Part shown: one piece after another, positions 33,712 to 50,140 of the stretch
How the letters are laid out: every line of letters starts with the position of its first letter
How positions within the stretch are numbered: the stretch's first letter is position 1
Assembly: GCA_963703345.1 (NCBI GenBank)
Contig: OY969814.1
Location: forward strand, 128,001 to 192,000
Length of the DNA: 64,000 nt
From: an uncultured Chloroflexia bacterium
Lineage (GTDB): Bacteria > Chloroflexota > Dehalococcoidia > DSTF01 > JALHUB01
Direction of reading: 5' to 3'
Notes under the pieces: generated by a model
Seen by the model: the letters and a program-made list of their open reading frames with translations, nothing else
What the model was told of the DNA's origin: nothing
The model's database searches: none
Made by a program: the position numbers and the translations under genes

Positions 33712-33809
33712 GGGAGTGGATGGGTCCCGGTGGGTCTCGCGGTCTTCAAAATCGTTGCGGGGCGGCCTGCGCCGTCCCGGGTGGGTTCGACTCCCACCCA
33801 CTCCCGCCA
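33712..33809 (+). tRNA. selC: tRNA-Sec (anticodon UCA)
   Basis: 98 nt; 8-bp acceptor stem GGGAGTGG/CCACTCCC; anticodon loop CTTCAAA; long variable arm; GTTCGAC; G73-CCA. Confidence 0.96.
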
Positions 33810-34135: not shown

Positions 34136-34720
34136 TTAGTCACGAAGAGGCGTGAGACGCGCTCCGCGATTCTCGACCAGGTCCACCATCGCCCTTTCCA
34201 GCGGCACGTCGAGCGCGACGGCCACCGTGCTCGTGTAGCGCATAAGCGCTACTGAGGCTACGATCTCGACGATCTCCGCGTCAGTCCATCCCGCTGCTCG
34301 GAGCTCGTCGACCATCTCGTCGGTGACCGCTGCCGGCCGCCGCCCGACGACGCGCGCGAAGTTCACCGCGGCATTCTCTTTGTCCGTGAGCCGCGGCGAA
34401 GGTTTGCCGTCGATCACCTCCACGCACTCCTCCGTGCTCCAGTGCTTGCTGCGCAGGGCCATCATGTGAGCCGCCGTGCAGTACTGACACTCGACCTCGC
34501 AGGCGGTGACGGCGAAGAATACGCGCTTCAGTTCTTCGCGAATGTTGCCCTCTTCGACGGTGGCCTGGCTCAGGGTCCAGAGAGCACCGGTGGTCTCGGG
34601 GAGATAGCCCAGCCCCTTCTGAAGAGCGGGGACCATCCGATAGTAACTCTTCACTCTTTCGAACATTTCCTTGGTCTTGCCTGTCGCCGTATCTGGGTCC
34701 AACAATGCTACGCGAGCCAT
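34136..34720 (-). CDS. AhpD/carboxymuconolactone decarboxylase-like peroxidase-related protein
   Basis: CQYCTAAH motif; LRAAGWTDAEIVEIV. Confidence 0.8.
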   Translation of the reverse strand: MARVALLDPDTATGKTKEMFERVKSYYRMVPALQKGLGYLPETTGALWTLSQATVEEGNIREELKRVFFAVTACEVECQYCTAAHMMALRSKHWSTEECVEVIDGKPSPRLTDKENAAVNFARVVGRRPAAVTDEMVDELRAAGWTDAEIVEIVASVALMRYTSTVAVALDVPLERAMVDLVENRGARLTPLRD

Positions 34721-39937: not shown

Positions 39938-40336
39938 CTAGTGCAGGCGCTCGACCAGATTCGGCAGGTCTCCACCGGCGTGCCGCAGCGCGGCGTCCCT
40001 AGCATCCTCGACGTCGGTTATCACAACCTCGATGCCGAGCTGCTGGAGGCTTTCCCTCGCGCCCCAACCCATGCCACCGGCTATGAGCGCCTGACAGTCG
40101 CTGATGGCAGTCGCCATCTGTTCGTGCCGCGACTGGGCTCCGGCGCCGAAGCCATGCCTGCCCTGTGCGTCCAGTTCTTCGTGCGGCTCGCCCGCGAAGG
40201 CGCGGTGCCCGAGCTTGGGGCGTTTCTCCTCGGCCACGACCTGTCCGTCCTTAATTGTCAGCACAATGTACATTTCCGCACGCCCGAAGTGCTGGCTGAT
40301 GGTCACGCCATCGTCGGATATCACTGCGATCTTCAC
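39938..40336 (-). CDS. NifB/NifX family (MTH1175-like) protein
   Basis: KIAV...SQHFGRA...GGMGWGA. Confidence 0.85.
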   Translation of the reverse strand: MKIAVISDDGVTISQHFGRAEMYIVLTIKDGQVVAEEKRPKLGHRAFAGEPHEELDAQGRHGFGAGAQSRHEQMATAISDCQALIAGGMGWGARESLQQLGIEVVITDVEDARDAALRHAGGDLPNLVERLH

Positions 40337-40367
40337 TGCTCACTCCTCCAGCTTTCTATAGTCTCGT

Positions 40368-40607
40368 CTATTCCCGGTGGCACGACCCGCCGGTTGAGCA
40401 GGGCGGAGTCTCGCAGCGCTCCTCGCGCCCGCAGCAGGTCGTGCCCCCGGCGCGCGCCGTGTCGCTCACTACGTTGAAAGATGACAGAAGCTTCTCCATG
40501 TCTTCTGCACCGCAACTCGGACAGCGGGCTGATGCGGCGTCGGGTCTTTGGACGAACATCTCGTGAACTTCGCCGCACCTGCGGCAACGGTAGTCGTAGA
40601 TTGGCAT
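40368..40607 (-). CDS. FmdB family zinc-ribbon protein with Cys-rich tail
   Basis: MPIYDYRCRRCG...CPSCG...TCCGREERCETPPC. Confidence 0.85.
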   Translation of the reverse strand: MPIYDYRCRRCGEVHEMFVQRPDAASARCPSCGAEDMEKLLSSFNVVSDTARAGGTTCCGREERCETPPCSTGGSCHRE

Positions 40608-40627
40608 CTTATCCTCCAAGCATGCAG

Positions 40628-41488
40628 TCAAGGCACCGAACAGGTCGCGATCGCCCCCCACAGCGTCTTGATCTCGCGAGAGGCAGCACCGTCGGACGTC
40701 TCCACGACGGGCCTTCCCTGAACAATCGCGCTATTGACGTCGGGGTCAAACGGTATTCTGCCAACGACCTCAACTCCGGCATCGCCGCAGTGGTCCTCTA
40801 TACGGCGAGTGTTCTCCTCGCTGAGGTCGCACTTGTTGATGCAGACGAGCGGGCCGACGCCGAAGTGGCGGCAGAGACCAAGCACCCGCTCAAGGTCGTG
40901 GATACCGCTGAGGCTGGGCTCGGTCACGATCAGGGCCATGCCGGCCCCCGATAGCGATGAGATGACGGGACAGCCGATGCCCGGCGGGCCGTCGCTCAGG
41001 ATGTAGCGCGCGCTCGTCTCCTGGGCCATCTCGCGCGCCCTTTTCCTGACCGCCATCACCAGCTTGCCGGAGTTCTCCTGGGCGGCCCGCAGGCGGGCGT
41101 GGACGAGCGGCCCGAATCTGGTCCGCGAGACGTACCATTGGCCCGCCAGCGTGTCCCGCATCGAAATGGCGTTGAGCGGGCAGACCTGGAGGCACAAGCC
41201 GCAACCTTCGCAGGCCAGGGGGTCGACGCGGAAGTCGTGTATCGCGTCGAAGCGACAGGCGTCAACACAGAGGCCGCACTCGTTGCATGCCTCTGAGTCG
41301 ATGTGGGCCACCTGCAGCCCGTAGAACTCGTGCGCCTCCTCGGCCTGCGGTGCAAGCAAGAGGTGGAGGTTGGGCGCGTCAACATCGCAGTCGCAGAGGA
41401 CGCTGTTCTCGGCGAGCGCAGCGAAGGAGGCGAGCACCGTTGTCTTGCCCGTGCCGCCCTTGCCGCTGAGCACCACTATCTCTTTCAA
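40628..41488 (-). CDS. MinD-like P-loop ATPase with inserted 4Fe-4S domain
   Basis: SGKGGTGKT, DCDVDAPNL, two ferredoxin Cys motifs, ENSGKLV, DGPPGIGCPV. Confidence 0.92.
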   Translation of the reverse strand: MKEIVVLSGKGGTGKTTVLASFAALAENSVLCDCDVDAPNLHLLLAPQAEEAHEFYGLQVAHIDSEACNECGLCVDACRFDAIHDFRVDPLACEGCGLCLQVCPLNAISMRDTLAGQWYVSRTRFGPLVHARLRAAQENSGKLVMAVRKRAREMAQETSARYILSDGPPGIGCPVISSLSGAGMALIVTEPSLSGIHDLERVLGLCRHFGVGPLVCINKCDLSEENTRRIEDHCGDAGVEVVGRIPFDPDVNSAIVQGRPVVETSDGAASREIKTLWGAIATCSVP

Positions 41489-42342
41489 TTGACACTCCCC
41501 ACGGCCGCGAGCCCTCTGACGCTGTCGAAGAGCTCGCGGAACCCCTGCTGCCAGGACGGCATCGCAGCGGCCAGGGTCTCGCCGCGGCAGTAGGCCTCGG
41601 CGATCCGCCTGTCGAAGGGGATGCGCATCAGCACCGGTATCCCCTCCTGGGCGCAGTAGCGTTCCACGCCGTCGTTTCCCTCTCCATCGCGGTTGATGAC
41701 CACGCCGCAGGGCACGTTGATCTCCCTCGCCACCTCAACGGCGATCGTCAGATCGCTGAGCCCGAAGGGGGTCGGCTCCGTGACGAGGAGGCAGAAGTCG
41801 CTCCCCCGGATCGTCTCGACCACCGGGCACGACGTGCCGGGCGGCGCATCGAGGATGACGGTGGCCGCCGGGTCGGCGAGGCCTTTGACCGCGCGGATGA
41901 CCGGCCCCGCCATCGCTTCGCCGACGTTGAGCCGCCCACCGACGAAACGGATTCCGCCGACATGCCCGCTCTCGACGGCGCCTACCTCTCGCCCCTCTTC
42001 GCTGATCGCGCCCGCCGGGCAGACGTAGGAGCAGGCGCCGCAGCCGTGACACAGCTCACGGAAGACGAGGACGCTGCGGCCCGCCACGGCGATGGCGTTG
42101 TAGGCGCACGCTTCCGAGCAAAGCCCGCAGTAGGTGCACCTCTCCTTGTCGACCACGGGCACCGGAACGGTCACCGGCTGAGAGGAATCGATCTCCGGAC
42201 GCAGGAGGATGTGCGCGTTGGGCTCCTCGACGTCGCAGTCCAACAACTGCACCGGCATCTGTCCCTCCAGGGACAGAGCCAGGCTGGTGGCAACGAGCGT
42301 CTTCCCTGTGCCTCCCTTGCCGCTGGCGACGGAAAGAATCAT
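41485..42342 (-). CDS. MinD-like P-loop ATPase with inserted 4Fe-4S domain
   Basis: ASGKGGTGKT, DCDVEEPN, two ferredoxin motifs, DAPPGTSCPV, TEPTPFG. Confidence 0.92.
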   Translation of the reverse strand: MILSVASGKGGTGKTLVATSLALSLEGQMPVQLLDCDVEEPNAHILLRPEIDSSQPVTVPVPVVDKERCTYCGLCSEACAYNAIAVAGRSVLVFRELCHGCGACSYVCPAGAISEEGREVGAVESGHVGGIRFVGGRLNVGEAMAGPVIRAVKGLADPAATVILDAPPGTSCPVVETIRGSDFCLLVTEPTPFGLSDLTIAVEVAREINVPCGVVINRDGEGNDGVERYCAQEGIPVLMRIPFDRRIAEAYCRGETLAAAMPSWQQGFRELFDSVRGLAAVGSVN

Positions 42343-42386
42343 CTGCCTTTTCCCGTTCGGATTACTTGAATAAACTGGCCTTCGGC

Positions 42387-42839
42387 CTATCGCCGGCGGC
42401 CTCCACCGCGGCCGCCTCCCATGCCGCCGCTAGGACCGCCGCCCATCCGACCGCTGCGGCCTCCGCCCATGCCACCTCTCATGCCCGCGCCGGGACCGGT
42501 CGAGGCTCGGGCGACAGGGGAGAACTCTCCTCTCTTGAATGCCTCGACCACATCACGCAACTTACCGGACGTGCCCGCATACACGGGAATGCCGGCGGTC
42601 GATAGCACCTGGTAGGCGTTAGGGCCGCAGTCGCCGGTGACGACCGCCTCCACGCCCTTCTCGACGATGAGCTGGGCGGCCTGGATGCCGGCGCCGCCGG
42701 GAGCGGTCATCGCCGGGTTCTCGATTGCCTCGAACTCCATGCTCTCGCTGTCGACAACCAGCAGGTATTGGCACCTTCCGAAGCGGGCGTCGAGGTCGGC
42801 GTCAAGGTGCGGCGCCGTCGCTGAGACTGCTATCTTCAT
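42387..42839 (-). CDS. NifB/NifX family (Orange protein-like) with Gly/Arg tail
   Basis: RFGRC, GGAGIQAAQ, GDCGPNA. Confidence 0.9.
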   Translation of the reverse strand: MKIAVSATAPHLDADLDARFGRCQYLLVVDSESMEFEAIENPAMTAPGGAGIQAAQLIVEKGVEAVVTGDCGPNAYQVLSTAGIPVYAGTSGKLRDVVEAFKRGEFSPVARASTGPGAGMRGGMGGGRSGRMGGGPSGGMGGGRGGGRRR

Positions 42840-42908
42840 CCTGCCTCCTAATCTGGTGCAGGCGAGGCGGGGAAGGGAGTCTACCCTGCCTGCCCGCTCA
42901 CGTAGGGG

Positions 42909-43262
42909 TTACTCCTCTTCAGCGGTGCTCTCCATCTCTTCGATGCGCTTCTTAGTTTCCCGAAGCGCCTCCTCGAAGTAGCTGGCTTGGTTCTTCAGGG
43001 CCGTCACCTCGTCCTCCGGGCTGTAGCTCGGGGGATAGGCCGGGCCGAAGGCTGGAGCGTACGAGCCGTAGGGCGTTCCCCACAGCTGCGGTCCTCTGCC
43101 AAAGCCGCGACCGCGTCCTCTGCCGAAGCCTCGTCCCCAACCTTGGCCCCGTCCGCCGCGGCCAAGGCCACGTCCGGGCAGGGGGTAGCCGGCGCAGTGA
43201 CCCGCGCCTCGGCCGGTCATCGGCCCGAGGCCTTGGGGTCCTGTTCTGTCTCCGAATGGCAT
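42909..43262 (-). CDS. DUF5320-like Gly/Arg-rich protein
   Basis: MPFGDRTGP.G.GPMTGRGAGHC; C-terminal coiled coil. Confidence 0.85.
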   Translation of the reverse strand: MPFGDRTGPQGLGPMTGRGAGHCAGYPLPGRGLGRGGRGQGWGRGFGRGRGRGFGRGPQLWGTPYGSYAPAFGPAYPPSYSPEDEVTALKNQASYFEEALRETKKRIEEMESTAEEE

Positions 43263-43357
43263 GTGATTTCACCTCCTCTCGTTAGTCGTGTTCTCTGAAC
43301 ATCATGTCCTGTGCCCAATCATGCCGACGGGTCCGTTCCATCAGCATCGTAATGTCT

Positions 43358-43546
43358 TTAGCAACGCTCGCCGCGCATCGTCGTGCCACACTTCGGGCAG
43401 GCGATGGCGGTGCAGGGTGTTCCCCGCCGATGCGGCTGCGTGTGCCCGCAGCTCGGGCAGCGGCAGACCATCGACCCGCCCAGGCCGCGACCCGTCCCCG
43501 AACCGCCTGCCGGGCGTCCCTCTTGACCTTTGCCTCTTCCGAACAT
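43358..43546 (-). CDS. Small Gly-rich/Cys-rich protein
   Basis: CRCPSCG..HRRGTPC...CPKCG; AAGGAGG RBS. Confidence 0.75.
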   Translation of the reverse strand: MFGRGKGQEGRPAGGSGTGRGLGGSMVCRCPSCGHTQPHRRGTPCTAIACPKCGTTMRGERC

Positions 43547-43564
43547 GACATGCCTCCTTTTCCG

Positions 43565-44069
43565 TTACCGACCGCGTCCACCCCGCCACCGTCGCCGGAT
43601 CCCGCGGGAGTCCATCAGCGGAGCCGCGGGAAGCGTTTTGCCCCGGGGGTTGCGCCGGGTAGATTCGAGGCCACCTCGGTCCCACGTGGACGGACGTCTT
43701 CTGTCGAGCCACCAGCCTGCGAGACCGCCGACAAACCGGGCCGCCAGCGGGAGAACGCCCACCCACAGTGGGGATGGCGTTGTCGCTGGAAACGTGAGTG
43801 CGGGGGTTCTCGCTGGCTTCGCAGGCCGGGCGACGGCTGTCGTATCGGCACGCATGATCGGCGCCGCGTTGGCAGCAACCGCGACCACCGGCGCCGGCTC
43901 AACCTCGTAGATGGCGCCGACCGGGCAGAGGCGCAGACAGGCGCCGCATTCAGCGCACAGGTCGCGGTCGATTACTAGCTTGCCCTCTGCCAGCGAAAGC
44001 GCTTGCCAGGGACAGGCTTCGACGCAGTCGCCGCACAGTGTGCATTTCTTCTCGTTCAACAAAGATCAT
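43565..44069 (-). CDS. 2x[4Fe-4S] ferredoxin-domain protein; possible frameshift at codon 5
   Basis: CTLCGDCVEACP and CAECGACLRLCP; the RBS-coupled ATG at 44069 is 1 nt out of frame, alternative TTG at 44059/44062. Confidence 0.7.
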
Positions 44070-44554
44070 CCTCTTCCTCCTCTCCAACGGCGCCCCCGCT
44101 GGCCCTGCCCTCCGCCCCATCCACGACCGCCCGCGCCGCCGGGGAACACGGGAAGGACCTCCGGGGTGCGGCAGTCGGGACAGACGATGGGCTGGCGCGA
44201 TGCCAGGGCGTCGAACGGGACCTGCCACTCGTGGCCGAGAGGGGCACAGCGGAAGCGCTGGCTCGGCAGGGCAAAATTGCCCCCTTCAATGCGGAGGGCT
44301 TTGCCTTCGGCAAGCACGGTAGCTATCTTGTGATGCGCCGAGCGTAGTATCCGGTGAAACGTGGGACGGGAGACGCCCATCTTCTCGGCGGCCTCCTGCT
44401 GCTCCAGGCCCAGCAGGTCTTTCAGCCGGATGGCTTCCGCCTCCTCCACGGCCAGGGTTACTTCCTCCAGCAGGCGCAACGGGATGCCGGCCGGCTTGAA
44501 ATAGGTCGCCAGCGGCATCTCTGATACTCTGCGGCACTTGACTGGTCTCGACAT
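44066..44554 (-). CDS. DUF134 family DNA-binding protein with zinc-ribbon-like tail
   Basis: MSRPVKCRRV, YFKPAG, EEAEAIRLKD, MGVSRPTF, IEGG. Confidence 0.9.
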   Translation of the reverse strand: MSRPVKCRRVSEMPLATYFKPAGIPLRLLEEVTLAVEEAEAIRLKDLLGLEQQEAAEKMGVSRPTFHRILRSAHHKIATVLAEGKALRIEGGNFALPSQRFRCAPLGHEWQVPFDALASRQPIVCPDCRTPEVLPVFPGGAGGRGWGGGQGQRGRRWRGGRG

Positions 44555-44568
44555 GGTTGCTTCACCTA

Positions 44569-44611
44569 ATGAAACTATGTTCATAATAATCCACCCTATG
44601 TCGGCTGTCAA
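44569..44611 (-). promoter_or_regulatory. Promoter and candidate operator of the DUF134 operon
   Basis: TTGACA-17 nt-TATTAT; palindrome ATGAA-N6-TTCAT at 44569-44584 abutting the -10 box. Confidence 0.65.
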
Positions 44612-45954: not shown

Positions 45955-46991
45955 GCGTCACCTTCCTGTACGCTTTCCAATGCTCGCCGCACCTGCCCTT
46001 CCCTATTGCCCGCGCCTTCGAGCTTCTCCAACACTCGCGGGATGACCTCGTGGATATCACCGAGAATAGCGACGTCGGCAATCTTGAAGATGGGGGCGCT
46101 CTTGTCGCTATTGATCGCGATCACCGACTTCGCGTCCTTCATGCCGACGACGTGGTGCGTTGCTCCAGAGATACCGCAGGCGACATAGAGGCGCGGCGCA
46201 ACCGTCTTCCCCGAAAGGCCTACCTGCCTATGCGCCGGGACCCAGCCGGCGTCCACGGCCGCTCGGCTCGCTGCCAGGGCGCCTCCCAACTTTTGCGCCA
46301 GCCTTTCCAGCATGGCGAACCCGTCCGGCCCGCCGACACCTCTACCGCCGGCGACGATGACATCTGCGCTCATAAGGTCCATCTCGCGCGGCGGGTCGCG
46401 GACCTCCGCTTCGACAGTCGACCTGCGTGCGACGATCATCGAGACGGGCAATCGGACCATTTCCGCCTCGCAAGGCGTTGCGGTGTGCTTTCCGTAGCCG
46501 GGCTGGAAGGTAGCGATCTGAGGGACCGACCGACAGACCACTCTGGCCGATAGTCTTCCCGCATAGACCGGCCTGTTCACCAGCAGATAGCCATCGCCGT
46601 CGACATCCAGCTTTGTGCACTCGGACGCCAGACCCGAACCCAGTCTTGCAGCGAGCCTTGCAGCCAGCACCCGCATCGTCCGATCGGACGGGAATAGGAT
46701 GATGCGCGGCTCACGCTGCCGGACAGCAGCCTCCAAGATGGGCAGACAGACATCGGGGTGCTGGTGTGAGAGGTTGGGATGATCGCATAGGTAGGCCAGC
46801 TGTGCGCCGTGCCGGCCAAGGGCGGGCACCGAACGCTCGGCCTTGTCGTGAAGAACGACCGCCGCGAGTGTGGCGCCCAAACGGTCGCCGAGCCCCCGTC
46901 CCTCCGCCAGGAGCTCCAACGACGCGTCCTCCACCTCTCCGTCCCTGAGGCCGATGACTACCCAGACCTCAAGCTTCTTGTCTACGTTCAT
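45945..46991 (-). CDS. etfA: Electron transfer flavoprotein subunit alpha
   Basis: VAGGRG, ASRAAVDAGW, QVGLSGKTVAP, GISGATHH..GM. Confidence 0.92.
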   Translation of the reverse strand: MNVDKKLEVWVVIGLRDGEVEDASLELLAEGRGLGDRLGATLAAVVLHDKAERSVPALGRHGAQLAYLCDHPNLSHQHPDVCLPILEAAVRQREPRIILFPSDRTMRVLAARLAARLGSGLASECTKLDVDGDGYLLVNRPVYAGRLSARVVCRSVPQIATFQPGYGKHTATPCEAEMVRLPVSMIVARRSTVEAEVRDPPREMDLMSADVIVAGGRGVGGPDGFAMLERLAQKLGGALAASRAAVDAGWVPAHRQVGLSGKTVAPRLYVACGISGATHHVVGMKDAKSVIAINSDKSAPIFKIADVAILGDIHEVIPRVLEKLEGAGNREGQVRRALESVQEGDAWP

Positions 46992-47133
46992 GGCGCGATT
47001 ATACGCCCACCAACCCGCTCAAGTGTGTCTGATTGGGACATCCCGAATGGGAACGCAATTGACCTGCGTCGGCACTACCCATAGAATGCGAGTCGCCGGT
47101 TCCGCTGATTGCCCTATCCTGAGGAGGCACAGA

Positions 47134-49080
47134 ATGACGACCCCAACTCCCGAGCTGAAGCATCTGTTCACGCCCCTGAAGATAGGCGCATTCACCGTGA
47201 AAAACCGCATCGTGAGCACGGGCCACCTGAGCAACTTCGCCGTTCAGGGACTTCCCTCCGAGCGCCACTTCAACTACTGGGTCAACAAAGCGCGAGGCGG
47301 CGTCGGCCTGATCGTGACGGAGGACCAGGCGGTGCACCGGAGCGGCGGCTCGGAGCCGTTCGTCATCCAGGCCTATCGCGACGAATGCGTCGAGCCGTTC
47401 CGGCGGATCACTTCCGCGGTCCACGAACACGGGACAAAGATGGTCGCGCAGCTCTTCCATCCGGCGAGCAACTGGTTCCCAACACGCGAGGAGGGTCTGC
47501 CTCTCTGGTCTGCGGGACCGGTGTCGGCCAACTTCAGCTTCGAATCGACTCACGAGATCGACCGGGAAGAGATCCAGGAGGTTATCGACAGTTATGCCTC
47601 TGGCGCGGTCCGCATGAAGGAAGCGGGGCTGGACGGCGTCGAGCTGATGGGCGCGCACGGCTTCCTGATGGAGCAATTCCTCTCGCCGCGGACGAATCGC
47701 CGCACGGACCAGTACGGCGGCACCGAAGAGAACCGGACGCGGTTCGTGAAGGAGCTGATGGCGGCGGTCCGGCAGGCGGTGGGAAAGGATTTCACCGTCG
47801 GAATGCGGATTAGCGGCGACCAGTTCCAGCGTGGCGGCCTCGCCCTCGACGACATGAAACGCATCTGCGGCTCTCTCGCGGATACGGGCGACGTCGACTA
47901 CCTGAGCGTTTCGATCGGCATGGGCGGCGCGATCATCCCGCCGATGTACGTGGCCTCGGCTGCCTTCGTCTACCTGGCGGCGGGAATCAAGGAAGAGGTT
48001 GACATTCCGGTCTTCTGCGCCGGGCGCATCGTCGACCCTATCAAGGCGGAAGACATCCTCGCGAAGAACCAGGCGGACATGGTGGCGATGACCCGCGCCT
48101 GCCTCTGCGATCCTGAATTGCCGATGAAAGCGCAGGAGGGCCGGCTGGACGAGATTCGTTACTGTATCGGATGCAACGAGGGCTGCTGGGGAAGATCGGC
48201 GCAGAAGCTCCCCATAACCTGCGCCCTGAACCCCTCAGCGGGCCGCGAAGAGGAGATGAAGATAACGCCTGCGCCCACAAAGAAGAAGGTGATGGTGATA
48301 GGCGGAGGGCTCGCCGGCATGGAAGCGGCGCGGGTTGCAGCTCTGCGAGGTCACTCGGTCGCTCTCTATGAAAAGGGCGCAGAGCTCGGTGGCCAGCTCC
48401 AAATAGCGGCACGCGCTCCCGGTCGGCAGGACATGGCGGAGCCTGTCCGCTACTACCGGCGGCAATTCGAGCTGTTGGGCGTCGATCTGCATCTGGGGAC
48501 GGAAGTGACGCCGGAGCTGGTCGAACAGGAGGCCGCCGACGCCGTGATCGTCGCGACTGGCGGTGTCGCTGCCAAGGGATCTTTCCCCGGTTCAGACAAC
48601 TCGAACGTGGTGCTGGCGAGGGATGTCTTGTCGGGAAAGGCGGAGGTCGGCAAGAAGGTGGTGGTGCACTCCATGGACCGCTCGACCGAGGGCTTCACAA
48701 CCGCTGACTTCCTGCTGGAAAGCGGGCATGAAGTCGAGCTCCTCATCCCACATCCAATCGCGCCGTTGGCGACCGAGCCGATAACGTTCGGCTTCATCAT
48801 GACCCGAATCGCGCGGGCGGGCGGCAAGATCACGATGGGGCTGGACATCGCATCGTTCGACGGGAGTGGGCTGGTGTTGGGCGGCGTCTTCGGCGGGAAC
48901 GTCCAGGCGCGCGAAGGCGTCGACACGATCGTGGTGTCACGCGGCAGTAAGGCCAACGATGGGCTCTACAAGGCGCTCAAGGGACGGGTCAAGGAGCTCC
49001 ACGTGATCGGGCAGGCATTGGCGCCGCGCAAGATGCTAGAATCGACGCTCGACGGCTTGCGGATTGGCAGGACAATCTAG
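47134..49080 (+). CDS. NADH:flavin oxidoreductase (OYE-like TIM barrel, 4Fe-4S and FAD domains)
   Basis: KNRIV, GLDGVELMGAHG, NRRTDQYGG, CIGCNEGC..C, IGGGLAGMEAA. Confidence 0.92.
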   Translation: MTTPTPELKHLFTPLKIGAFTVKNRIVSTGHLSNFAVQGLPSERHFNYWVNKARGGVGLIVTEDQAVHRSGGSEPFVIQAYRDECVEPFRRITSAVHEHGTKMVAQLFHPASNWFPTREEGLPLWSAGPVSANFSFESTHEIDREEIQEVIDSYASGAVRMKEAGLDGVELMGAHGFLMEQFLSPRTNRRTDQYGGTEENRTRFVKELMAAVRQAVGKDFTVGMRISGDQFQRGGLALDDMKRICGSLADTGDVDYLSVSIGMGGAIIPPMYVASAAFVYLAAGIKEEVDIPVFCAGRIVDPIKAEDILAKNQADMVAMTRACLCDPELPMKAQEGRLDEIRYCIGCNEGCWGRSAQKLPITCALNPSAGREEEMKITPAPTKKKVMVIGGGLAGMEAARVAALRGHSVALYEKGAELGGQLQIAARAPGRQDMAEPVRYYRRQFELLGVDLHLGTEVTPELVEQEAADAVIVATGGVAAKGSFPGSDNSNVVLARDVLSGKAEVGKKVVVHSMDRSTEGFTTADFLLESGHEVELLIPHPIAPLATEPITFGFIMTRIARAGGKITMGLDIASFDGSGLVLGGVFGGNVQAREGVDTIVVSRGSKANDGLYKALKGRVKELHVIGQALAPRKMLESTLDGLRIGRTI

Positions 49081-49116: not shown

Positions 49117-49827
49117 TCAGCCTCTGCCGAAGCGCCAGAACGAGCCGGTCTTCCCCAGCTTGATCAGAATGCCCACCCATTCGCGCGCTAGTTCCGGTAT
49201 GCGCAGCAGATAGTCGGGCGCGAGACGCTCTCGGAACATGCCGCCGGAGAACAGCGTCGCGTAGTCTCTCAGCGGCATCGTGCCATCGGCGCTGTTCTCG
49301 TCGTACTGTACCCAGTTGCGAACGTGCTCTTCCGACCGGAAGAGATTCATGGTGCTTCAGGAATGGACTATATTCTCTGCCCAGCGACCAAATGGCACGT
49401 TGACGTGGCCAACAATGGACGGCGGCGACGCCTCGAGGATCTCGCCGTCTCGCATACGGACGCGTATCGGTTCGTTGCAGTCGAGGCAGGGGCAGTCGAT
49501 TTGGACTTCCTTGCCGGGGTAAAGCCAGCTGACCGCCAGCGACTCAAACCCTCACTGCCCGTACCATTTCTGTTCCCCATTGACTGATATCAAGTATTGG
49601 GTAGGGCGGTTGGAGAAGGGCGCTAACGAGCCTATCAGGTCGGTGTTCGGCTCCAGCCAGAACCCCGGGACGCCCGCCTTCTCCAGGTCATGCAGTGCGA
49701 CGCGAGCATCTTCCGGCGATAAGCTCAACTCCTTGGCCAGCTCCGTGTAGTGCGGCGCGCGACCGTCATTGACGTTATGGCTTATCGACGCGTGGTAGAT
49801 CCTTGCCAGTAATTCTCGATCTGCCAT
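49117..49827 (-). CDS. MerB-like protein with two probable selenocysteines (U92, U157), 236 aa
   Basis: One continuous frame from ATG 49827 (AAAGGAGG RBS) through in-frame TGA at 49552-49554 (WYGQ-U-GFE) and 49357-49359 (VHS-U-STMNLFRSEE); SECIS-like hairpins follow both; selC present. Confidence 0.85.
49327..49344 (-). promoter_or_regulatory. Candidate SECIS for the second UGA
   Basis: CTCTTCC-GGTC-GGAAGAG hairpin starting 12 nt after the UGA. Confidence 0.7.
49517..49551 (-). promoter_or_regulatory. Candidate SECIS for the first UGA
   Basis: GGGT-TT-GAGTC-GCTGG-CGG-TCAGC-T-GGCTT-T-ACCC bulged hairpin immediately after the UGA. Confidence 0.7.
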
Positions 49828-49873
49828 GTGCACGCCTCCTTTGCGATCGAGCCGAGACAATTCCCGCGGCCAG

Positions 49874-49902
49874 ACCATATCACAGCCGGTTGCCGTTGCC
49901 AA
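49874..49902 (-). promoter_or_regulatory. Putative promoter of the MerB-like gene
   Basis: TTGGCA-17 nt-TATGGT with TG extension. Confidence 0.5.
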
Positions 49903-49953
49903 GGGGGTGCTGTAGATGAGCGCTCGGATTTCGCGTCCGCGTAGATGTACACC

Positions 49954-50140
49954 ACCGCAGCGCAGCGCCTCCAGGACTAGCAGAGGCTTTCGCAAGTCCC
50001 TGGCCCGGTCCGCGAGCTGCTGCAGCGCGAAGTTCAGCCTGTCCGACGGTAGGCCATCATCCAATAGAGGACGAATTCGCGGGAGCCATCAACGGGCTCA
50101 TCGTTCGGAGTGACTATGCGTGTCCCTGGGGCCTGTCCCA
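49954..50140 (-). pseudogene. N-terminal remnant of a DNA photolyase-family gene (frameshifted, truncated)
   Basis: ...EFVLYWMMAYRRTG / NFALQQ...KPLLVLEALRCG in adjacent frames. Confidence 0.65.

Follow-up and report, generated by a model that had tools for sequence, protein, structure and literature searches.

The stretch of DNA analysed here (64,000 nucleotides; hereafter the window) comes from an uncultured bacterium of the Chloroflexota and contains, on its minus strand, a frame of 236 codons that runs from ATG 49827 to a stop TGA at 49119-49117 and is broken internally by two TGA codons only, TGA92 and TGA157 (Table 1). Two pieces in the list of open reading frames, 49552-50064 and 49117-49350, are the two ends of this single two-UGA frame. 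The original prediction of one frame from ATG 49827 with a ribosome-binding site, two TGA codons and the peptides quoted around them was exact in every part when the sequence was re-read. All 10 aligned relatives of the gene have an AGGAGG-like ribosome-binding site, and the extended -10 element of the promoter-like site is retained in most of the 10 aligned upstream regions. The spacer of this site is 17 nt long, compared with 19 nt in MerR promoters. A catalase gene is located 350 bp upstream in the same orientation, and a gene for a flavin oxidoreductase (46870-49080, plus strand) is convergent with the two-UGA gene, which appears to form a transcription unit of its own. Pieces of the gene are present in contigs of three RNA runs, in small shares that do not demonstrate transcription.

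Table 1. Features of the two-UGA gene and the selenocysteine tRNA gene; positions are those of the window
Feature	Position	Strand	Remarks
Two-UGA MerB-fold gene, 236 aa	49117..49827	-	Stop TGA included; Pfam MerB 73.8 bits; AF2 pLDDT 96
UGA92, likely Sec	49552..49554	-	Aligned with MerB Cys96
UGA157, likely Sec	49357..49359	-	Aligned with MerB Cys159
Glu95	49543..49545	-	At the MerB catalytic Asp99 position; Glu in 110 of 111 core-clade sequences
Cys114-x-x-Cys117	49477..49488	-	Cys114 corresponds to MerB Cys117; with His168, possible remnant zinc site
N-terminal winged-helix domain, residues 1-70, as in MerB	49618..49827	-	LexA-type winged-helix structure matches, Z 9.6
SECIS-like hairpin 1	49524..49540	-	6 pairs, 5-nt loop with GU; +12 to +28 after UGA92
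SECIS-like hairpin 2	49327..49344	-	7 pairs, GGUC loop; +13 to +30 after UGA157
Ribosome-binding site AAGGAGG	49835..49841	-	7 nt before ATG
Promoter-like site TTGGCA, 17 nt, TG-n-TATGGT	49874..49902	-	1 site, 0.2 expected
tRNA-Sec (selC)	33712..33809	+	ARAGORN; genome 161712-161809; needed in trans

The host genome (G000) carries a second copy of the gene (C1:1930145-1930843, minus strand; L135), which is 78% identical, retains both TGA codons and both hairpins and is preceded by the same promoter-like motif, but has other neighbours, with an HD-GAF protein encoded upstream. The nearest named homologues, at 94% and 81% identity, come from genomes of Chloroflexota/Dehalococcoidia.

Probable recoding of the two UGA codons

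It had been argued that two chance nonsense mutations would hardly produce this arrangement, and the comparison with relatives agrees: the 78% identical paralogue has both TGA codons, and 48 of the 75 genome-derived aligned loci read TGA/Glu/TGA, a count that includes re-fetched copies and stands at 43 of 125 after 90% dereplication. Contigs from independent runs show 0-3 differences where they extend across UGA157 and 11 where they extend across UGA92, and neither codon is altered among the contig matches listed, which is weak support against sequencing error. The check proposed on the homologues showed only TGA or Cys codons at the DNA level at the two sites. In the 155 alignable loci of the 162 fetched, 141 carry TGA and 14 carry Cys at site 157, and at site 92 there are 49 with TGA, 105 with Cys and one misaligned fragment; TAA, TAG and TGG occur at neither site in any of these 155 loci. 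The 80 metagenome loci all have TGA at site 157 and are informative on that site only, because the scan pattern by which they were retrieved required Cys92. After 90% dereplication, the 125 loci comprise 43 Sec/Glu/Sec, 67 Cys/Glu/Sec, 5 Cys/Glu/Cys, 3 Cys/Asp/Sec, 4 Cys/Asp/Cys and 1 Sec/Gly/Sec forms together with 2 misaligned fragments, and none combines Sec92 with Cys157. On a quick tree of 119 of these 125 rows, the state at site 92 switches between Sec and Cys 9-11 times, the usual pattern for a catalytic Sec. Judged by these alignments, the family is large, with a predicted Sec157 that is constant and a predicted Sec92 that interchanges with Cys. Codon 82 of locus L063 is TAG, and this copy of the gene may be broken. 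A sister clade (L021, L024, L030 and L031) combines a Cys-x-x-Asp motif with TGA at site 157 and the same GGUC hairpin; its members fall under every NCBIfam cut-off, and many database proteins of 145-155 aa may be truncated representatives of this clade.

The machinery for selenocysteine insertion, which the original prediction had wanted confirmed, is complete in the host genome: selA, selB and selD all score over cut-off, selD itself containing a TGA, and both tRNA-Trp(CCA) and tRNA-Sec(UCA) are encoded. The tRNA-Sec gene lies in the window 15 kb from the two-UGA gene, alone there and far from selA, selB and selD; an ORF judged by eye to be AhpD/CMD-like (34136-34720, minus strand) adjoins it. 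Co-occurrence with selA is uninformative, because the gene is present in 20 of 22 TGA-bearing genomes and also in 279 of the 301 genomes of the background sample. Among individual genomes, the search did not find selA in G530 or in G107, which has a two-TGA gene, and in G190, also with a two-TGA gene, selB is in two pieces (C1:2278771-2279914); the cases of G107 and G190 may reflect assembly errors.

Each UGA is closely followed by a hairpin (Table 1). All 6 pairs of hairpin 1 are present in 43 of 44 UGA92 forms, compared with 28 of 67 Cys92 forms, and the GU of its loop in 44 of 44 and 29 of 67, respectively; when forms with the same amino acids are compared, the hairpin is intact in 42 of 43 UGA and 18 of 24 Cys forms, so that its conservation is partly due to the protein sequence. 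In hairpin 2, the codons are frozen across 64 dereplicated genes (Leu162, 63/63; Arg164, 62/64; Ser165, 63/64), whereas the top codon at other conserved residues with 4- to 6-fold degeneracy reaches about 40-70%. Pair 6 of this hairpin shows a compensatory change from C-G to U-A, at the cost of replacing Glu166 with Lys, in 17 of 102 genes, which are related sequences and represent few independent events, and pair 7 changes from C-G to A-U in one gene. The folding-energy z-scores (-0.30 for hairpin 1, -0.92 for hairpin 2) are not significant; we accordingly rejected hairpin stability as proof of a SECIS, and the case for the hairpins rests on conservation. Both UGA92 and UGA157 pass a hairpin filter that is passed by 254 of 20432 open TGAs, although this filter is not a general SECIS finder because the selD hairpin fails it. 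The terminal TGA of the gene has no such hairpin. Formate dehydrogenase, sought as an in-genome SECIS control, gave no candidate over cut-off in the host genome. Taken at the level of sequence conservation, each UGA is followed by a conserved, putative SECIS-like hairpin that is under selection, and we consider it very likely that both UGA codons are read as Sec. Apart from this, the segment 49311-49361, which covers UGA157 and hairpin 2, has matches of at least 85% in many contigs that derive from other organisms and come from runs on soil, peat and sediment, and it could act as a primer or probe site.

The databases hold the family in several forms, namely Cys forms of about 155 aa cut off at U157, 90-aa pieces cut off at U92, pieces of 73-77 aa starting from Met160, and proteins with Trp at both sites in the same clusters. 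Since these W/W proteins co-cluster with fragments that end at the TGAs, they look like gene calls made with TGA read as Trp; readthrough with Trp was rejected on this ground and because TGG is present in no locus. One protein cluster (P0009, P0102, P0107 and P0112-P0114), known from proteins alone, has Ser or Gly at site 92 and Cys or Val at site 157 and also holds members truncated at both TGAs; it may represent a gene-calling artefact or a loss of Sec.

The same host genome contains another in-frame TGA, in a Group-3b-like [NiFe] hydrogenase large subunit (G000:C1:933582-934856, plus strand; L171:4583-5857) that scores 259.8 bits, under cut-off, against NF040832. The TGA replaces the first Cys of the N-terminal metal motif (SRI-U-GIC) and is followed by an 8-pair hairpin, whereas the C-terminal motif has Cys. 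It is present in 5 of 14 readable loci, all from the genus of the host, and the other 9 have Cys. In the NiFeSe enzymes known, Sec is located in the C-terminal motif, so that the position of this TGA looks unusual.

Fold, active site and relation to known families

When read through both UGA codons, the protein matches the Pfam MerB model PF03243 with 73.8 bits (cut-off 27). The AlphaFold model, which was folded with Cys in place of Sec and with one extra terminal residue, has a pLDDT of 96 and adopts the MerB fold. Foldseek matches under E 0.001 were confined to 11 MerB chains, MerB2 and MerB first (best E 1.8e-9), and the VIA comparison gave Z values of 17.2 (MerB2, 5c17; rmsd 3.3, 191 residues aligned) and 15.5; the best unrelated match, to the winged helix only, reached Z 9.6. 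In a profile built from 20 full-length members, the residues U92, E95, C114 and U157 fall opposite C96, D99, C117 and C159 of E. coli MerB, and the same correspondence is obtained with MerB2. The placement of the two UGA codons at the catalytic Cys96 and Cys159 of MerB, with Glu at the position of Asp99, is thus confirmed against solved MerB structures, and the acid at position 95 (Glu, or Asp in the sister clade) is kept across the family. We predict with good confidence that the protein has a metal-binding site of the MerB type.

The evidence from alignment, fold, Sec machinery, exchange of Cys with TGA and the hairpins supports the two-Sec, Glu-variant MerB-fold protein of the original prediction, and none of the findings named in advance as refuting it turned up at the DNA level. 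The differences from characterized families are considerable. With MerB (EC 4.99.1.2; PF03243; NF033555, NF009710; 3F0O, 3F2F, 1S6L; MerB2, 5C17) the family shares the whole fold, including the winged helix, and the positions of C96, D99, C117 and C159. The canonical triad Cys96/Asp99/Cys159 is replaced by UGA, Glu and UGA, placing a predicted Sec at both metal ligands and Glu where MerB has Asp, while an equivalent of Cys117 is present. The protein further differs from MerB in lacking a counterpart of Cys160, in an extra Cys117/His168 pair, in about 30 extra C-terminal residues, in an identity of only 15-20% and in having no mer operon. The suggested search with the MerB and SaoL models passed that of Pfam, as given above, whereas the scores with the NCBIfam models are well under cut-off, for MerB (NF033555, 26 of 200 bits; NF009710, 31.9 of 193 bits) as well as for SaoL (NF040728, 34.8 of 140 bits).

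SaoL has been described as a MerB-like selenoprotein of anaerobes with Sec at the Cys159 position and with truncated database copies (10.1101/2022.07.06.499078), features in which it resembles the present family. Its single Sec lies in a CU motif, it has Cys99 and Asp102, and it is encoded in a nine-gene SAO locus (10.1101/2022.07.06.499078), whereas the present family has HSUST in place of CU, Glu95 and often a second Sec at the Cys96 position. The SAO nine-gene neighbourhood is absent around the two-Sec genes, which have no conserved neighbours; a search for SaoC in the host genome, run without a positive control, was blank. On these sequence features the two-Sec family is distinct from MerB and from SaoL. 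In the portions covered, SaoL is the sole MerB-like entry, with one Sec, of the 2026 selenoprotein catalogue (PMC13188914) and the one MerB-like selenoprotein of a 2022 review (PMC9312934). The two-Sec family was not found in the same portions of that catalogue or in NCBIfam 20, and no two-Sec MerB was found in the main texts of the literature covered, in which the families of Haft and Tolstoy 2025 (mSystems) are represented as listed in the covered portions of PMC13188914. The main text of deep-Sep makes no mention of MerB, and that of BSepDB has neither a lyase nor a mercury entry. Very likely, therefore, the sequences described here represent an uncatalogued group of double-Sec, glutamate-type MerB-fold selenoproteins.

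A TRASH/treble-clef zinc finger has been proposed as the ancestor of the NosL/MerB fold (PMC4999995). The two-Sec family resembles such a finger in its CxxC knuckle and the His in the next helix, and the distant relatives L032, L133 and L134 keep C, C, C and H; it differs in having Arg164, which falls within hairpin 2, at the position of the third ligand in 111 of 111 sequences. Cys117 and His168 are lost together (both present in 101 sequences, neither in 7, a single one in 1 and 1), in about four lineages on the tree, and this co-loss suggests that the pair may be a remnant of the ancestral zinc finger of the MerB fold.

Genomic context and possible functions

The neighbourhood of the family is not conserved. 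No neighbour family exceeds 8 of the 125 loci, and the commonest neighbours are an OYE-family flavin oxidoreductase (8 loci, in mixed orientation) and an amidase (5 loci); operon-based assignment of a function was rejected for this reason. Only genes within 500 bp, selected with a composition heuristic, were counted as neighbours, and the flanks of many loci extend to just 1.5 kb, so that wider clusters could have escaped. The minus-strand cluster at 39938-44611 of the window, which encodes a DUF134 regulator, a ferredoxin, a DUF5320 protein, two Nitro_FeMo-Co proteins, two MinD/4Fe-4S ATPases and a zinc-ribbon protein, is ordinary in anaerobes and has no link to the two-Sec gene. The earlier observation that merA, merR and merTP are absent locally holds. 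Among the 100 nearest neighbours scanned for the family, no mer gene and one HMA_2 domain were found, and no merA over cut-off was detected in the host genome (96% complete), for which all 23 candidates were scored. A merA score over cut-off was obtained for 6 of the 52 carrier genomes, among them 3 of the 45 two-Sec carriers, with the best 25 candidates per genome scored in most cases. The gene hgcA, absent from the host genome, is present in 15 of 28 carriers compared with 78 of 273 others in a 301-genome phylum sample, but among genomes of at least 4 Mb the figures are 13 of 23 and 23 of 48 (p 0.61), and coupling to hgcA was rejected because the excess disappears after size control. A homologue of any form occurs in 31 of 301 genomes of the class and close two-TGA forms in 28 of 301 genomes of the deltaproteobacterial phylum; the 563 confirmed metagenome stretches were found with a scan pattern that required Cys92 and say nothing on the frequency of Sec92.

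The reading that we favour, with a probability of about 0.5, is that the two-Sec protein would catalyse metal-carbon cleavage as a stand-alone organometal lyase, without a mer operon. SelB would read hairpin 1 and hairpin 2 in turn, and in the mature protein the selenolates of Sec92 and Sec157 would clamp the soft metal of R-M+, for example the Hg of methylmercury. Glu95, whose longer side chain may suit the longer metal-selenium bonds, would relay a proton to the carbon with release of R-H, and the metal would leave on small thiols or sulfide, an exit suggested by the absence of MerA from most carriers. Of the predicted two-Sec, Glu-variant lyase, the Sec/Glu MerB-fold part is well supported, while the lyase activity is suggested by homology and the conserved acid, for which a role in binding or redox chemistry alone would give no obvious reason. 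For MerB, the mechanism has been described, changes of Asp99 impair the enzyme, and a selenium-containing synthetic mimic cleaves methylmercury (PMC10114901); nothing was found in the literature covered on the effect of D99E on MerB. The missing mer context, the lack of a conserved operon and the 17-nt spacer of the promoter-like site count against a lyase. Turnover could also stall, given the great strength of bonds between Hg and Se and the poor ability of selenols to donate protons. That organomercury is the natural substrate is a tentative prediction, to which we give less credence than to metal-carbon cleavage itself.

A redox selenoenzyme built on the MerB scaffold, in which Sec92/Sec157 (or Cys92-Sec157) would pass through a diselenide or selenenylsulfide cycle in reducing or cleaving an organic substrate with no metal, is an unlikely but serious alternative. 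Bacterial selenoproteins are mostly thought to be redox enzymes (PMC13188914), and the neighbours lean towards redox and small-molecule functions (OYE flavin oxidoreductase, redoxin, nitroreductase, CMD, OsmC, DinB, glyoxalase, amidase), with catalase upstream of the two-UGA gene and no mer context; yet the identity and orientation of these neighbours vary, so that they do not demonstrate coupling, no redox role for the MerB fold was found in the literature covered, and the acid at position 95 is conserved. Also unlikely, though again a serious alternative, is a stoichiometric trap, whose two selenolates would hold Hg(II), methylmercury or another soft metal near-irreversibly and shield other selenoenzymes without useful turnover. 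Such a sink would fit the absence of MerA, the usual exit for Hg, from most carriers, the promoter-like site of the gene outside any operon, and the reaction of methylmercury with seleno-amino acids towards HgSe (PMC10114901). However, a protein of 236 residues with two recoding events would be a costly one-shot sink, and the conserved Glu95 and pocket residues suggest catalysis; moreover, calculations suggest that Hg can be removed from the Cys enzyme by thiols when MerA is absent (PMC4525700), and merA is in any case missing from about half of the genomes that have merB (PMC8261052). A metal- or redox-sensing regulator binding DNA through the winged helix is highly improbable: the first 70 residues give matches to winged helices of the LexA/IdeR type (Z 7-9.6) and distant Cys relatives weakly match the lexA model, but this domain falls inside the whole-chain MerB match, and neither a conserved neighbouring target nor an operator was found. 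Least credible of all is that the gene is a pseudogene, is split with a restart at Met160, or is read through with Trp or another residue, even though Met160 follows UGA157 in 111 of 111 core sequences and the W/W, 90-aa, 155-aa and 73-77-aa database forms exist, given that Met160 is also present in the Cys157 member L006, that TAA and TAG never substitute for TGA or Cys in the DNA, that both hairpins appear to be under selection whereas the terminal TGA has none, and that the host genome has both tRNA-Trp(CCA) and tRNA-Sec(UCA).

If the two UGA codons are indeed read as Sec, these genes make up a widespread selenoprotein family that the databases hold mostly as fragments or Trp misreadings, and one in which both metal ligands of a single site are Sec, a rare arrangement. 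Surveys of merB filter called genes on Cys96/Asp99/Cys159 (PMC8261052, PMC12484752) and would therefore drop the family. The pathways of anaerobic demethylation have been described as unresolved (PMC10114901). It is conceivable, although we regard it as doubtful, that the favoured lyase acts, independently of mer, as a demethylase of methylmercury that relies on selenium in anaerobic Chloroflexota and bacteria of the sulfate-reducer type, and that some of the demethylation in anoxic soils and sediments for which there is no explanation is due to it, also in hgcA-bearing cells. The family would in any case provide a named candidate for anaerobic demethylation, and its natural Sec/Sec, Cys/Sec and Cys/Cys variants may serve as a probe of the role of selenium at a MerB site.
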